Positions 5,674-38,532 of a stretch of DNA of 64,000 nt are shown in pieces. Positions within the stretch are counted from its first letter, which is position 1; every line of letters begins with the position of its first letter. The stretch is from Escherichia phage HY03. The translations under genes and the position numbers were made by a program. Below the pieces are notes generated by a model. The model worked only from the letters and a program-made list of their open reading frames with translations. It did no database searches and was not told where the DNA came from. Where the stretch lies: sequence record NC_031047.1. One strand, 5' to 3'.

Positions 5674-6957
5674 ATGGCTAAAATCAACGAACTTTTGCGC
5701 GAATCAACCACAACGAATAGCAACTCAATCGGTCGCCCAAATCTCGTTGCTTTGACTCGCGCTACCACTAAATTAATATATTCTGACATTGTAGCAACGC
5801 AAAGAACTAATCAACCTGTTGCTGCTTTTTACGGTATCAAATACCTTAACCCAGACAATGAATTTACATTTAAAACTGGTGCTACTTATGCTGGCGAAGC
5901 TGGATATGTAGACCGAGAACAAATCACAGAATTAACAGAAGAGTCTAAATTAACTCTCAATAAGGGCGATTTATTCAAATATAATAATATCGTTTATAAA
6001 GTATTAGAAGATACACCATTTGCTGATATTGAAGAAAGCGATTTAGAATTAGCTCTTCAGATTGCAATTGTTCTTTTAAAGGTTCGTCTATTTTCTGACG
6101 CAGCGTCAACAAGCAAATTTGAAAGCTCTGATAGTGAAATTGCGGATGCTAGATTCCAGATTAATAAATGGCAAACCGCAGTTAAATCTCGTAAACTTAA
6201 AACTGGTATCACAGTTGAATTAGCACAAGATTTAGAAGCAAATGGATTCGATGCTCCTAATTTCCTGGAAGATTTGCTTGCAACTGAAATGGCGGATGAA
6301 ATCAATAAAGATATTTTACAGTCTTTGATTACAGTATCAAAACGCTATAAAGTTACAGGAATTACTGATACTGGATTCATTGATTTGAGCTATGCATCTG
6401 CACCTGAAGCTGGTCGTTCATTATACCGAATGGTATGTGAAATGGTTTCACATATCCAAAAAGAATCAACTTATACAGCAACGTTCTGTGTTGCTTCAGC
6501 TCGTGCCGCTGCGATTCTTGCTGCATCAGGTTGGTTAAAACATAAACCAGAAGATGATAAATATCTTTCACAAAATGCCTACGGGTTCTTAGCTAATGGT
6601 TTACCGCTTTATTGCGATACTAACAGCCCATTAGATTATGTAATCGTTGGTGTAGTAGAAAATATCGGCGAAAAAGAAATTGTTGGATCAATTTTCTATG
6701 CTCCGTATACAGAAGGTCTTGACTTAGATGACCCTGAACATGTAGGTGCATTTAAAGTTGTAGTTGACCCAGAAAGTTTGCAGCCATCTATCGGTTTATT
6801 AGTTAGATATGCTTTATCAGCAAATCCTTACACTGTAGCAAAAGATGAAAAAGAAGCAAGAATAATTGATGGTGGAGACATGGATAAAATGGCGGGTCGT
6901 TCAGATTTGTCTGTTTTATTAGGTGTTAAGCTACCAAAAATTATCGTTGATGAATAA
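5674..6957 (+). CDS. 24: capsid vertex protein gp24
   Basis: 427-aa gp23 paralog in conserved position. Confidence 0.95.
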   Translation: MAKINELLRESTTTNSNSIGRPNLVALTRATTKLIYSDIVATQRTNQPVAAFYGIKYLNPDNEFTFKTGATYAGEAGYVDREQITELTEESKLTLNKGDLFKYNNIVYKVLEDTPFADIEESDLELALQIAIVLLKVRLFSDAASTSKFESSDSEIADARFQINKWQTAVKSRKLKTGITVELAQDLEANGFDAPNFLEDLLATEMADEINKDILQSLITVSKRYKVTGITDTGFIDLSYASAPEAGRSLYRMVCEMVSHIQKESTYTATFCVASARAAAILAASGWLKHKPEDDKYLSQNAYGFLANGLPLYCDTNSPLDYVIVGVVENIGEKEIVGSIFYAPYTEGLDLDDPEHVGAFKVVVDPESLQPSIGLLVRYALSANPYTVAKDEKEARIIDGGDMDKMAGRSDLSVLLGVKLPKIIVDE

Positions 6958-22636: not shown

Positions 22637-23281
22637 TTATCCTTGAACGAACTTGTAAGGCATGTTTGCAATATCTATGCAAGACGCAATAATTCCAAGA
22701 GATGATTCTACTTTCTGTTTAACATTTGATGAAACAAATGATGCAAAGTCAACTCTGTCTTCTATTTCAATATCACCTGTCATTGCAACTACTTCACCAG
22801 TTTCCATTAGACGGTCACCGTCATAAATTACTGATTCGGTGAGTTCTTCCGTAGTCATAACTTCAGCTTGAATGAGTTTTGTATTATTAAATGTTGTTCC
22901 GTCATTATTAGAAGCATCAGTTATTTTATTAACTTTGACCATCAATCCACGTGGTAGAATAACTTCAGCTTCTGTTGCTATTCCGAGACTTCCTGGATAT
23001 ACAACATTAACTTTATGAGCTCCATCAATTGCCCATCCTATTTGAACTTTAACGTATTCAGGATTTTCTTTATACGCTCTTATTTCGTTTGGATTAATAG
23101 TTATTCCTTCTTCATTTTTATCAACTGTCAATTCATTACGAGCTTCTGGTTCTAAAAGACCGATACCAGCATGTGTAATTCCAAAACGTCCAAAAATGAT
23201 AGGAGTTAAAGAAGTAGATACAAAATTTCTGAAATAGAACACTTTATTTTTAACTAATGCTTCGTATATAGGAGCAGTCAA
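22637..23281 (-). CDS. hypothetical protein, possibly a 5'-truncated gene remnant at the synteny breakpoint
   Basis: 214-aa ORF whose only start is TTG without RBS; in-frame stop 6 codons upstream; abuts the divergent 116-aa gene. Confidence 0.45.
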   Translation of the reverse strand: MTAPIYEALVKNKVFYFRNFVSTSLTPIIFGRFGITHAGIGLLEPEARNELTVDKNEEGITINPNEIRAYKENPEYVKVQIGWAIDGAHKVNVVYPGSLGIATEAEVILPRGLMVKVNKITDASNNDGTTFNNTKLIQAEVMTTEELTESVIYDGDRLMETGEVVAMTGDIEIEDRVDFASFVSSNVKQKVESSLGIIASCIDIANMPYKFVQG

Positions 23282-23282
23282 T

Positions 23283-23633
23283 ATGAAAGGTAATGTTTAT
23301 TTAGTAGTTCATGATTTAACATTCTATTTTAATCATAATGATACTGTTATTTCTGAACGTGTAATTAATTTGCTTTATCAGCATGCAGATTATGTTTATG
23401 TCGAAAACGAATATGGTCATTGGCAATTTCTCAAAAATCGTTCATTTGGTTTAGATGGTTACGAATATTTTGATCGTAAAGACCTTTTAGATACAATTCC
23501 GTTATCTACACAATATCAAAATCATAAGTCTTTACATAAATGCCGGCTAATTCGAAATGCTGAATCCGCGTATGAAGCAATTGATTTATGGCGTAAACGC
23601 CGTGAACAGATTGATGCTTTAAAAGAATATTAA
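23283..23633 (+). CDS. hypothetical protein
   Basis: 116-aa ORF with AGGAG RBS, immediately upstream of the structured RNA locus. Confidence 0.65.
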   Translation: MKGNVYLVVHDLTFYFNHNDTVISERVINLLYQHADYVYVENEYGHWQFLKNRSFGLDGYEYFDRKDLLDTIPLSTQYQNHKSLHKCRLIRNAESAYEAIDLWRKRREQIDALKEY

Positions 23634-23639
23634 GAAACC

Positions 23640-23940
23640 GGGTCGCTACCGGTAAGTCGTCGGACTGATGTTCCCTGGAGTATAGTTTCCTCCCACAGTT
23701 TTACTGTGTTCTGGCTCTTTACTATTACAGCAGAAACGGCGCACCGAATTATCGATTCGAGGAAATATCTTTGCCATAAGCCGAGTAGCGTTTTTGACGG
23801 AACGTTCGGATATGGTCGAGATATGGCCTTTTAAAAATATTGAGTAGCGTCAACTACTTAATAACCGGGTTCAAATCCCGGCGTTTCGTACAAACACTTG
23901 CCTTAGCAGGTGGAACCCCGACAAGGTTGCCGCAAGGCTT
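23640..23940 (+). ncRNA. structured non-coding RNA locus (tRNA-cluster remnant or stable small RNA); contains a tRNA-like T-arm
   Basis: 300 nt without ORF, GC-richer than flanks, several hairpins, canonical T-arm CCGGG-TTCAAAT-CCCGG at 23865-23881, GNRA-capped helices. Confidence 0.4.
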
Positions 23941-23969
23941 AGCCCTGACCGAAAGGTTGGGGCTTTTTA
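23941..23969 (+). terminator. intrinsic terminator: 10-bp stem, GAAA loop, U5 tail
   Basis: AGCCCTGACC-GAAA-GGTTGGGGCT followed by TTTTT. Confidence 0.8.
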
Positions 23970-24043
23970 GTTTGAATCACTCAGAGAATGCTGTTACGGA
24001 TAATAAATAATTAATAACCAATAAATTATTTCAAGGATTTTAA

Positions 24044-24607
24044 ATGAAAACCTATGCCGAATTTTTAACTGAAGCAGCAAAATTACCATCTGAAGCAGAT
24101 CTTACTAAAGTATTCTTCCACTTGGACCCAAAAGACCGGGGCGATTTTCTTAAGTGGAAAGCTAAAGCTATTGAAATGTATAACATCGATAACAGTTCTT
24201 TTACGATGAGCCAAGAAAATAGTTTCAATAAAGCATTTTTCAAAATTTCTAAGAAATTGGCATCTGGCGCTCAGGTTTCTAAATCTGCATTAGCTACTCC
24301 TGAACGTGCACCTGTTAAAATTTCTAAGAATATGTTTGACACTAAAAAATATGTCAATGCTTTGAATAAAGCTCTTGATGCATTGGATGATGCAAAGAAG
24401 GCAGCCCGCGATCTTCAAGACGTGTATACCGATTTTGATCGTAAAACTAAAGGTTCTATTTCAAATAGCGAACGCAATAGTGTAAGTGTTTATTCTGATA
24501 GCCTTGATGTTCTTGGCGATGCATATACTGAAATTAAAAATCGTATTAACACCGCATCTAAGCTAAAAGCTGCTGCAGAAGCTATAATAACTAAACTAGG
24601 TAAATAA
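24044..24607 (+). CDS. internal protein-like capsid-targeted protein (N-terminal CTS MKTYAEFLTEA)
   Basis: 187-aa ORF beginning with the T4 IP capsid-targeting sequence, predicted gp21 cleavage after LTEA. Confidence 0.8.
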   Translation: MKTYAEFLTEAAKLPSEADLTKVFFHLDPKDRGDFLKWKAKAIEMYNIDNSSFTMSQENSFNKAFFKISKKLASGAQVSKSALATPERAPVKISKNMFDTKKYVNALNKALDALDDAKKAARDLQDVYTDFDRKTKGSISNSERNSVSVYSDSLDVLGDAYTEIKNRINTASKLKAAAEAIITKLGK

Positions 24608-24615
24608 TTTTAAAT

Positions 24616-24640
24616 CCCTATCTAAATGATAGGGCTTTTT
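24616..24640 (+). terminator. stem-loop CCCTATC-TAAAT-GATAGGG with T-run
   Basis: 7-bp stem then CTTTTT. Confidence 0.6.
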
Positions 24641-24762
24641 GGTATCTAGGCCTTTCCGGGCCTCTCTAGGCATCATTTAGTTTATATCCTTTATAATATA
24701 TTATCCTACCTTTTAATTGCCCCTCCCCGCCCTAAAATTCCCTAAAAATTTTTCACAAAACT

Positions 24763-28246: not shown

Positions 28247-28777
<531 letters not shown>

Positions 28778-28870: not shown

Positions 28871-29344
28871 ATGAAAACATATCAAGAATTTATTACTGAA
28901 GCAGCTATTAATTCTCAAATTATTGCTGAATCTTTTACTGATCTTTTGAAATTTAAAAAAGGACAGAAAATCACTGCTGTATTGGATGATGGTACAGAAG
29001 TTGAGATGGATGTACAGGGATATAATTATGCAGTAGATGGAAAACTGTATAATAAATCTCATGCTAAATTTGATTCATTTGACGACTTTGTTAATACAGT
29101 TGAAGATGAAAAAACTCGTCGATCCATTGCAACTGGTGATGCTAAGGTTCTTATGGCACATGGTCATGAACGCATTCGCGCTAAACAGAATAAAATGGGT
29201 GAAGATAATTTTGCATTAGTTGGTTATCAATCTGGTAAGCAAACTTATGGCTATCAGCGTACTGCTACCATGTATAATAAAAATGGTAAAATCGCTTTCG
29301 TGAATAGTAAAGGTTCTATTCAGTACGTTAAATCGTTCAAATAA
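28871..29344 (+). CDS. internal protein-like capsid-targeted protein (CTS MKTYQEFITEA)
   Basis: 157 aa with canonical IP capsid-targeting sequence. Confidence 0.8.
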   Translation: MKTYQEFITEAAINSQIIAESFTDLLKFKKGQKITAVLDDGTEVEMDVQGYNYAVDGKLYNKSHAKFDSFDDFVNTVEDEKTRRSIATGDAKVLMAHGHERIRAKQNKMGEDNFALVGYQSGKQTYGYQRTATMYNKNGKIAFVNSKGSIQYVKSFK

Positions 29345-37234: not shown

Positions 37235-37494
37235 CAGTTTACGTAGATGTTTTAATGAATCATGGATGGAAACTTCGCGGTCATCCAACTAAAAATTGTC
37301 ATATGTTCACTGATGGAGATATTGAAGAGCTTCACGAAATGGCAGAAGCAATAGGAATGAAACGTTCTTGGTTTCAAGATAAACGCATTAAACATTATGA
37401 CTTACACGCTCGGCGACGCCAAAAAGCTGTAGAACTTGGAGCTGTAGAAGTATCTCGTCGCGAAGCAGTAAAAATTTGGCAAACATTAAAATAA
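37231..37494 (+). CDS. hypothetical protein (conserved His/Cys-containing small protein)
   Basis: 87-aa ORF. Confidence 0.6.
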   Translation: MTVYVDVLMNHGWKLRGHPTKNCHMFTDGDIEELHEMAEAIGMKRSWFQDKRIKHYDLHARRRQKAVELGAVEVSRREAVKIWQTLK

Positions 37495-37497
37495 ATT

Positions 37498-37527
37498 GTT
37501 TACAGCAGGGTAGTAGTGTGATACTAT
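37498..37527 (+). promoter_or_regulatory. early promoter (GTTTAC, 18 nt, TACTAT)
   Basis: Upstream of the ATPase gene; leader ...TTGGAGAATAAAATG shared with the gene at 24836. Confidence 0.65.
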
Positions 37528-37563
37528 TACCCTATCAAAACAAATGTAAAATTGGAGAATAAA

Positions 37564-38532
37564 ATGAAAACTGTAACTATCAATAAGGGTATCTACTTTG
37601 GTAAAGAAATCTCTGGAACTTTTGAGCTCTTAGGTGAATGGTTCCCAGATAATGCTCCGGTAGATGCACAAGGAGATGGTAAAGTTTTTGTTGAAATTGA
37701 CGGTAAACGTCGCGGTGTTTGGGTTTACAAATCAGACATTTCATATGATGGTGTAAAAGTTGAAGAAGTTAAAGAATCATATGAAGATATGAAAACCCGC
37801 ATTAATAAAAGATTTAATGTTATGGGAATGATGACGAATGGTATTATTAACGGAAACATTCGTTCATTAATTATCTCTGGTGCGGCGGGTATTGGTAAAA
37901 CGTATTCTTTAGATAAAGCTTTAAATAAAGCAAATGATAATGGATACATTGAATATAAAAGCATTAACGGTAAAATCTCTGGTATCGGTCTTTATGAACA
38001 GCTCTGGAATAATCGTGAAGAGAATTCTGTCCTTTTGATTGATGATGTGGATGTTTTCTCTGATATGGACATTCTTAATCTTCTGAAAGCTGCTCTGGAC
38101 ACTGGAGAGACCCGTAAAGTCTGCTGGAGCACCGCATCTTCTTACTTAGAAGAAAAAGGCATTGAGCGTGAGTTTGAATTTAAAGGAACGATTGTTTTTA
38201 TCACAAACGTTGACATTGACCGCGAATTAGACCGTGGTACTAAACTTGCTCCACATTTACAAGCATTAGTGTCCCGCTCAGTTTATTTAGATTTGGGTGT
38301 TCACACTAATGAAGAAATTATGGTCAGGGTTGAAGATGTTATTCTTTCAACCGACATGATGCAAAAGCGTGGTCTTTCTGATGAAGAAACTTATAAAGCA
38401 TTATCATGGATGAAAGTCAATGTTAACCGTTTACGTAATGTTTCACTGCGTACTGCACTTTATCTTGCTGACTTTATTATGACCGACAAAAACGGTTGGG
38501 AAGAAATTGCTGAGGTTACTCTTCTGAAATAA
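37564..38532 (+). CDS. P-loop NTPase / AAA-type ATPase, unknown function
   Basis: Walker A GAAGIGKT and Walker B LLIDDVD; 322 aa from ATG. Confidence 0.7.
   Translation: MKTVTINKGIYFGKEISGTFELLGEWFPDNAPVDAQGDGKVFVEIDGKRRGVWVYKSDISYDGVKVEEVKESYEDMKTRINKRFNVMGMMTNGIINGNIRSLIISGAAGIGKTYSLDKALNKANDNGYIEYKSINGKISGIGLYEQLWNNREENSVLLIDDVDVFSDMDILNLLKAALDTGETRKVCWSTASSYLEEKGIEREFEFKGTIVFITNVDIDRELDRGTKLAPHLQALVSRSVYLDLGVHTNEEIMVRVEDVILSTDMMQKRGLSDEETYKALSWMKVNVNRLRNVSLRTALYLADFIMTDKNGWEEIAEVTLLK

Follow-up and report, generated by a model that had tools for sequence, protein, structure and literature searches.

The stretch of DNA analysed here (hereafter the window) comprises 64,000 nucleotides of Escherichia phage HY03 (NC_031047.1) and is a segment of a Tequatrovirus (T4-like) genome. 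Between an RNA locus and the gene e.8, it carries an open reading frame (ORF), 24044..24607 on the plus strand, which encodes a candidate internal protein (IP) of the T4 type and is flanked by the signals collected in Table 1. According to the ORF listing, the frame opens with ATG and specifies 187 amino acids with the N-terminus MKTYAEFLTEAAKLPSE; no alternative start is possible because the codon directly before the ATG is an in-frame stop. The product is the same as HY03_0071 of Escherichia phage HY03 and shares 99.5% identity with G4498_00137, and the window from 23600 to 24700 is 99.9% identical to Escherichia phage vB_EcoM_G4498 (hereafter G4498). It matches phrog_2280 (E 3.1e-53; residues 1-181 align with positions 1-178 of the 178 in the profile), a family listed in PHROG with function unknown. 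A protein of this window-type is encoded in 163 phage records, with at least 95% identity in all but one, among the about 741 records that match the region; the gene is accessory and patchy, and T2, T4, T6 and most Tequatrovirus records are without it. Where present, it is intact in more than 160 records, with copies 95-99% identical at the protein level and with the Shine-Dalgarno sequence, promoter element and terminator conserved. ORF 24044-24607 is a real gene, because an identical protein is also found on independent metagenome contigs and 163 phage records encode the type. The protein is labelled 'hypothetical' in every annotating record among those listed, save for one evidently spurious JGI label.

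Table 1. Features of the candidate internal-protein gene and of its flanks, in window coordinates
Feature	Position	Strand	Basis
Intrinsic terminator of the tRNA/rnaD/rnaC unit (left boundary of the cassette)	23941..23969	+	AGCCCTGACCGAAAGGTTGGGGCT followed by TTTTT; terminator scan
Late-promoter-like element AATAAATA, 42 nt 5' of the ATG	24002..24009	+	T4 late consensus TATAAATA except for A at -13
Shine-Dalgarno sequence AAGGA, 6 nt 5' of the ATG	24033..24037	+	Direct sequence reading
Coding sequence, precursor of 187 aa / 20.8 kDa	24044..24607 (stop codon within)	+	ORF listing, phrog_2280 match
Predicted capsid-targeting propeptide MKTYAEFLTE, predicted gp21 cut after Glu10 (between LTE and A)	24044..24073	+	Match to the capsid-targeting sequence
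Predicted mature protein, 177 aa, 19.6 kDa, isoelectric point 9.5, 25 Lys	24074..24604	+	Composition after the predicted cut
Intrinsic terminator of the gene itself (right boundary of the cassette)	24616..24640	+	CCCTATCTAAATGATAGGG followed by CTTTTT; terminator scan

The N-terminus of the protein carries the mark of an IP, namely a capsid-targeting sequence (CTS). Seven of its first ten residues are identical to the propeptide of T4 IPII and IPIII (MKTYQEFIAE), the changes being Q5A, I8L (conservative) and A9T. The first 10 residues of IPIII suffice for incorporation into the head, including that of foreign proteins (PMC9026906), and the suppressor mutagenesis of Mullaney & Black, in the summary given there, assigns targeting mainly to residues 4 and 7 and processing to residues 8 and 10. 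All these positions are kept in the window protein, both for targeting (Y4 and F7) and for processing by the prohead protease gp21 (L8 and E10). The gp21 motif Leu/Ile-x-Glu is present as L8-T9-E10, followed by Ala, which is the same tripeptide as the LTE-619 site where gp21 cuts T4 Alt (PMC5694885). Since this is the only [LIV]xE of the protein, a single cut is predicted, giving the 177-residue product with Ala11 as its N-terminus and AAKLPSEADLTK as the corresponding semi-tryptic peptide. A six-frame scan of the 64 kb for the CTS pattern returned two ORFs only (24044..24607 and 28871..29344), with the motif at the initiator Met in both, and a chance match is expected at roughly 1e-9 per ORF, a rough estimate from typical amino-acid frequencies.

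Transcription of the gene would be late. The element listed in Table 1 has the commonest natural departure from the consensus, as 32 of 50 T4 late promoters are perfect and 9 have A at -13 (Geiduschek & Kassavetis, PMC2988020). The same AATAAATA is found in RB69, GATAAATA stands in RB14 and CT01, and the ATAAATA core is invariant in RB14, RB69, CT01 and G4498. In three distant copies of the gene (those of phages KMB17, JS98 and HX01), the upstream terminator is directly followed by a perfect TATAAATA, 36-43 nt 5' of the ATG. On the other hand, T4 ipI, ipII and ipIII have no TATAAATA within 160 nt and have early-type promoters instead. A sigma-70 scan of the plus strand upstream of the gene gave nothing convincing, and a MotA-box middle promoter in AATGCTGTTA (23987-23996) was rejected for its poor spacing and sequence, the box not being conserved in RB14 or CT01. 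Elsewhere in the window, two perfect TATAAATA 13 nt apart (28249 and 28262, spanning 28249-28269) are located just upstream of lysozyme e (28283), a placement expected of late promoters.

On its upstream side, the gene is bordered by the RNA locus. T4 rnaD/rnaC and the terminator hairpin which follows them align at 90% identity to window 23633-23971; the identification of rnaD and rnaC rests on this alignment because an ARAGORN tRNA scan and an Rfam search (E ≤ 1) of the locus gave no match at the thresholds used. The G4498 record displays two short 'hypothetical protein' coding sequences across rnaD/rnaC (L001 6107-6411), which are probably spurious. The hairpin 23941..23969 is kept in T4, in Yersinia phage fD1 and in D5505. 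Between the rnaC terminator and e.8, T4 has a 284-bp spacer and no gene. Compared with T4, the window contains about 670 extra bases (leader, gene and terminator) between ...GGGGCTTTTT and GGTATCTAGG..., with T4 homology resuming at GGGCTTTTTGGTATCTAGG and the T4 alignment restarting at window 24632. The T4 IP genes are placed elsewhere, ipI being separated from the slot by the tRNA cluster and ipIII/ipII lying beyond lysozyme e. A preliminary description of this DNA, drawn from its letters, had recognised an IP-type CTS (MKTYAEFLTEA) on a gene located downstream of an RNA locus and at a position different from T4. The first statement agrees with the four mutagenesis-mapped determinants and with the identity of 7 of 10 residues to IPII/IPIII, the second with the alignment of 23633-23971 to T4 rnaD/rnaC and its terminator, and the third with the bare 284-bp spacer of T4.

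Similarity to the characterised T4 proteins ends at the leader. BLASTP gave no alignment with T4 IPI, aligned residues 1-11 alone with IPIII and found a weak N-terminal stretch of 36 residues in IPII (E 0.008); by alignment and BLASTP, the bodies of IPI, IPII and IPIII showed no similarity beyond residue 11. The proposal that the gene is divergent from these proteins is thus upheld, as no near-identity was found and the match is confined to the N-terminus; unrelated bodies are normal among IPs (PMC12373910). T4 IPIII (Ip3, a 193-residue precursor) comes close to the window protein in its CTS (MKTYQEFIAE), where the cleavage motif is likewise at 8-10, and resembles it in size (about 20 kDa), in basic character and in being encoded by a non-essential accessory gene of the tRNA-e region. 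It differs by its place downstream of lysozyme e with an early-type promoter, whereas the window gene is inserted between rnaC and e.8 with a late-type element, and by its known target, GmrSD of ECOR17. IPI/IPI* (inhibitor of GmrSD-CT596) and IPII (inhibitor of GmrSD-ECOR21) have mutually unrelated bodies and share CTS-directed packaging and gp21 processing, both of which are predicted for the window protein. Unlike the latter, which is predicted to be all-helical with two domains, IPI has a 19-residue propeptide, cut between ITE and A, and a small alpha/beta fold. Finally, Bas37_0260 (a McrBC inhibitor) shares with IPI-III the N-terminal packaging signal only and was recognised as an IP thereby; it occupies the ipI locus and has a tested function. 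The second CTS gene of the window (28871-29344) lies at the T4 ipIII position, downstream of lysozyme e, and encodes 157 amino acids starting with MKTYQEFITEA (Pfam DUF7412; phrog_3155, 'internal virion protein'). Its counterpart by position and length in fD1, g129 (157 aa), is listed as a virion-detected head protein.

The mature protein was modelled with AlphaFold2 from a 31-sequence alignment, with a mean predicted local distance difference test score (pLDDT) of 80.7; this run replaced a first one built on a shallow set of near-identical sequences (pLDDT 61). In the prediction, a small helical N-domain covers residues 17-73, residues 74-100 form a disordered linker, and the C-terminal part (101-186, pLDDT >90) is a long helical hairpin. 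In CT01 (L008 1501-1989), an in-frame deletion between two KISK repeats removes the predicted linker, and this part is dispensable in nature, as that copy lacks it. A fold search returned no match with known function and no PDB chain at E ≤ 0.001, and sequence-profile searches of Pfam, NCBIfam and PDB assigned no family. The Pfam Cytochrome b562 match (PF07361, 17.6 bits against a cutoff of 30) reflects helical-bundle composition only, and weak matches to PspA and TraA were set aside as helical or low-complexity noise.

Word-indexed and exhaustive HMMER searches (the latter covering 1.8 billion representatives) first delineate the window-type as a tight cluster, of at least 89% identity, with one distant relative, P0016 (30% identity over the full length); two long repetitive proteins among the HMMER matches, P0013 and P0015, were disregarded as low-complexity. 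Searches started from P0016, and then from a mixed alignment, added about 40 proteins from T4-like phages of Enterobacter, Cronobacter, Klebsiella and others. With the member of Enterobacter phage KMB17 as query, tblastn reached 190 phage records, including JS98 and IME08 (Dhakavirus), HX01 and the mar005P1 species (Mosigvirus), Karamvirus, Serratia CHI14 and Yersinia fHe-Yen9-01. Profile comparison links the window-type to the KMB17-type (hhalign, 96% probability, E 2e-9, 176 columns), and the mixed (KMB17-type) alignment to the HX01/JS98/mar005P1 type (99.9%, E 1.5e-33). In Mosigvirus, Dhakavirus and Karamvirus, the slot running from the tRNA/rnaC terminator to e.8 is likewise filled by relatives of 20-30% identity, and the gene is found after a tRNA-Arg or rnaC-type terminator and before e.8/e.6 in JS98 (orf135), HX01 (gp043), mar005P1 and KMB17. 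The window gene is no one-off and belongs to a family kept at this slot across several genera of Tevenvirinae.

In this family the leader is what is kept. The N-terminus fits M-x-x-[FY]-x-[EQD]-[FI]-[LIT]-x-E in 42 of 42 full-length members, while bodies diverge to about 20% identity, and [LI]-x-E ends the propeptide in all members but one of the 42 (41/42), P0021 having TSE with a nearby ITE. E10 is invariant in a 12-sequence alignment and at least 90% conserved in the 26- and 31-sequence alignments. Many members, as IPI, have a second I-T-E site followed by A near residue 16; the N-terminus in JS98 is MKTYNEFLNE. One relative is MAR005P1_00015 of Mosigvirus (HX01 gp043/JS98 orf135 type), which has in common with the window protein the profile family, the slot, a CTS-like N-terminus (MYTFNEFLAE / MKTYNEFLNE), a late-type promoter element and a terminator of its own, and the layout of N-domain, linker and C-terminal helical hairpin. 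It differs by an identity of about 20-26%, a much longer Pro/Lys/Ala linker, the second ITE-A site at about residue 16, a perfect TATAAATA and its detection in virions. The preliminary description had called IP loci hypervariable; the window gene is not hypervariable in sequence, since the copies are 95-99% identical and the variation consists of presence or absence and of the type of cassette. Literature searches found no paper discussing the window-type gene, which might yet correspond to one of the historical ip4-ip13 genes. While CTS-bearing internal proteins are well known as a kind, this locus and this family were previously unrecognised as IP-type.

Some copies are rearranged. RB69 has a 97.6%-identical, frameshifted copy split as ORF149c and ORF148c (L007 1501-2063), and other Mosigviruses carry the divergent family type, which suggests an exchange between genera. 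Three predicted proteins from metagenome assemblies (P0010, P0011 and P0014) are chimeras of part of the window-type gene with other genes of the region, for instance an e.8-like N-terminus MENEMDNYGELF joined to the last 28 residues, or residues 97-122 followed by a sequence resembling NudE. Such joins point to natural deletions whose breakpoints fall within the gene.

The slot can also be occupied by another gene. In Yersinia phage fD1 (Tequatrovirus), the interval between rnaC and e.8 (L012 5900-6480) contains g140, which encodes 157 amino acids with the N-terminus MKSYTQFLNE before A, and has a perfect TATAAATA upstream; the semi-tryptic peptide predicted after the cut is AVLNEASSTEIQAVAK. 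Genes of the g140-type are present in 512 phage records. This cassette is similar to that of the window by the slot, the CTS N-terminus, the late-type promoter element directly after a terminator and the presence of its own terminator. It is nevertheless a different gene, absent from the window, of which the C-terminal helical part alone is weakly similar by profile (79%, E 1.6e-5). In D5505 (L013 1227-2490), both cassettes are in tandem, the g140-type immediately upstream of the window-type, in the following order: rnaC terminator, TATAAATA, g140-type gene, exact copy of the terminator hairpin (AGCCCCGACCGAAAGGTTGGGGCTTTTT), AATAAATA and window-type gene, after which come the terminator of the latter, ending GGGCTTTTT, and the e.8 promoter region. 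A second copy of the rnaC terminator hairpin follows the g140-type cassette in D5505 and in fD1. Four states of the slot were observed, with both cassettes (D5505), the g140-type only (fD1), the window-type only (the window, G4498 and RB14) or neither (T4), and the junctions between these states fall at the repeated terminator ends. These states explain why many matches to the region are split in two by about 570 additional bases. The slot would thus behave as a modular locus of CTS genes predicted to be expressed late, and recombination between the terminator repeats is the likely mechanism of gain and loss. The arrangement resembles the mobile promoter-stem-loop cassettes of T4-type phages, the repeats here being terminators followed by late promoters.

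Products of two related cassettes have been seen in particles. Analysis of CsCl-purified vB_Eco_mar005P1 by nano-scale liquid chromatography-tandem mass spectrometry (LC-MS/MS; Michniewski et al., PMC6563131) detected five proteins and no more: the tail sheath, the prohead core protein, the major capsid protein, the packaged Alt ADP-ribosyltransferase and the hypothetical protein MAR005P1_00015. In record LR027390.1, MAR005P1_00015 (6284..6910) is the family member located in the conserved slot, with the note 'confirmed structural protein by MS', and the same identification was reached independently through the constant locus-tag offset of 15 in a sister record. In fD1, g140 is flagged as particle-associated by LC-MS/MS (Table S3 of PMC8309999). 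The packaging foreseen for the window protein gains support from these detections, in purified virions, of a distant family member and of the product of the neighbouring cassette, as well as from a late-promoter element conserved in position across genera.

We propose that the window gene, previously unannotated as such, specifies an internal protein of the T4 type and that the interval from the tRNA/rnaC terminator to e.8 is a fourth IP locus; an anti-restriction task of the protein is plausible. In this scheme, the gene would be transcribed late, from its own gp55-type promoter (AATAAATA, 24002-24009), during prohead assembly. The 10-residue propeptide MKTYAEFLTE would dock the 20.8-kDa precursor onto the scaffolding core, and the prohead protease gp21 would cleave it after Glu10. 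Following the T4 paradigm, the basic, Lys-rich product of 177 residues (isoelectric point 9.5) would stay inside the DNA-filled head until its ejection, together with the genome, into the cell. There, it would most likely neutralise a host nuclease attacking the incoming modified DNA (a type IV enzyme of the GmrSD/McrBC kind) or another first-response defence. Packaging, cleavage and ejection are probable, and, once packaging is granted, an anti-restriction or anti-defence role by analogy with the studied IPs is the rather likely outcome, a purely structural role being a weaker though serious candidate; taken as a whole, the proposal has in our opinion an even chance of being right. Inhibition of type IV restriction is put forward as the most likely role because the four characterised CTS proteins (Ip1, Ip2, Ip3 and Bas37_0260) all inhibit this type of restriction; the preliminary description had named an injected anti-defence role as a candidate only, and these four cases raise its prior. 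Indeed, Ip1, Ip2 and Ip3 are each directed against a single, specific GmrSD-type enzyme of type IV restriction, which they inhibit (2025 Nature Communications, PMC12373910), IPIII is required on ECOR17 and, if produced inside the cell, functions even when its CTS is missing (Srikant et al., PMC9391042), and the CTS protein Bas37_0260 inhibits McrBC (2025 preprint).

Several observations weigh against this proposal. Structure comparison of the prediction gave no match to IPI* or to any known inhibitor, and a search for virion proteomics of phages carrying the window-type found SDS-polyacrylamide gel electrophoresis only in the Sfk20 paper and none in the fPS-65/90 paper. The virion-detected MAR005P1_00015 is tied to the window protein solely by transitive profile homology and synteny: direct BLASTP between the two gives E 0.13 and the window-type profile meets that subgroup at 42% probability, and because this direct comparison is weak, the link of the window-type to the HX01/mar005P1-type rests on the KMB17-type intermediate together with synteny, promoter and N-terminus. 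The label given to g140 is poorly specific, as the fD1 study called 113 proteins particle-associated (PMC8309999). In addition, the position is conserved across genera, unlike that of classical IPs, and window-type copies are 95-99% identical, so that a housekeeping or structural role fits at least as well as an arms race; the Lys-rich, partly low-complexity composition is equally compatible with a DNA-associated structural role.

These last two points lead to the strongest rival, in which the protein is packaged through its CTS and acts inside the head as a basic, DNA-associated protein for charge neutralisation and genome organisation or ejection, without any specific host target. We regard this as somewhat unlikely. 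It agrees with the basic mature form (isoelectric point 9.5, 25 Lys), with the long Lys/Pro/Ala-rich linker of AKAPK type in distant members, the only weak NCBIfam match of the Mosigvirus member being to a TonB Pro-rich region, and with the contacts that T4 internal proteins make, through their lysines, with DNA phosphates in the head (PMC3012670). The retention of the slot in several genera, the 95-99% identity of the copies and the abundance of the Mosigvirus member, sufficient for it to be one of the five proteins detected, point the same way. Nevertheless, the gene is missing from T4 and most Tequatrovirus records, all of them fully viable, CT01 does without the linker, and every CTS protein studied has a specific anti-restriction target; the two roles are, moreover, not mutually exclusive.

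A second rival holds that the protein is not packaged at all, the CTS-like N-terminus being a non-working leader, inherited or derived from recombination, of a protein acting in the cytoplasm late in infection. Positions 5, 8 and 9 do differ from the T4 CTS, CTS-coding segments reportedly act as recombination points between IP genes (Repoila et al., 1994), and the promoter is non-consensus; the latter point also counts against the proposed late transcription, as the element is one mismatch away from the consensus and its motif occurs 4 times on the strand for about 9 expected from base composition, which is not significant alone. However, the changes at 5, 8 and 9 are judged to fall outside the mapped determinants, the 10-residue CTS of IPIII suffices to package foreign proteins and one family member was found in virions. 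The motif is also the best-conserved part across relatives of about 20% identity, which argues for selection on it, and we consider this alternative improbable. Finally, that the ORF is a decaying remnant or unexpressed, as the frameshifted RB69 copy (ORF149c/ORF148c) and the absence from T4 could suggest, is scarcely credible for a gene intact in more than 160 records at 95-99% protein identity, with conserved Shine-Dalgarno sequence, promoter element and terminator, a widespread family and a confidently predicted fold.

Internal proteins are the only T4 proteins delivered along with the DNA, hence active before any phage gene expression; every IP tested is a highly specific inhibitor of type IV restriction, and IPs help set host range. 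To this group, the proposal of an internal protein with an anti-restriction task would add an unrecognised family and an unrecognised IP locus, found among hundreds of T-even phages of therapeutic type that belong to several genera. If injection is confirmed, the protein would serve as a probe for a host defence, either new or a new variant of one already known; it would also be a determinant of host range, which matters for phage-therapy cocktails, and would offer a further natural packaging leader for engineering of T4 head delivery; if the role is merely structural, the finding is an ordinary one. A bolder extension, which we consider doubtful, is that the slot is a fourth Tevenvirinae IP locus organised as a cassette array, whose products would be injected effectors against defences other than the GmrSD/McrBC targets of Ip1-3. 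Were it true, injected effectors with a new fold and target would form a family distributed widely and across genera.

The surroundings of the gene in the window present an unusual junction (23281/23282). There, the C-terminal fragment of an Alt-like ADP-ribosyltransferase (22637-23283, 214 aa, minus strand, phrog_802 positions 480-674) abuts a 116-aa ORF which normally follows tRNA-Arg, and nothing remains of the tRNA cluster, which has 10 genes in G4498; genes 48/54 lie upstream of the junction on the plus strand. No phage record spans it, the matches ending at window 23280, and the metagenome contigs with an identical window-type protein show the normal context, not this junction. Either a misassembly or an inversion, of about 57 kb, between the tRNA cluster and alt would fit this geometry. 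Lastly, an 85-bp stretch of the window (37493-37575) is 90% identical to an intergenic segment near the ipI locus of G4498 (L001 2778-2860) and is possibly a repeated regulatory element.

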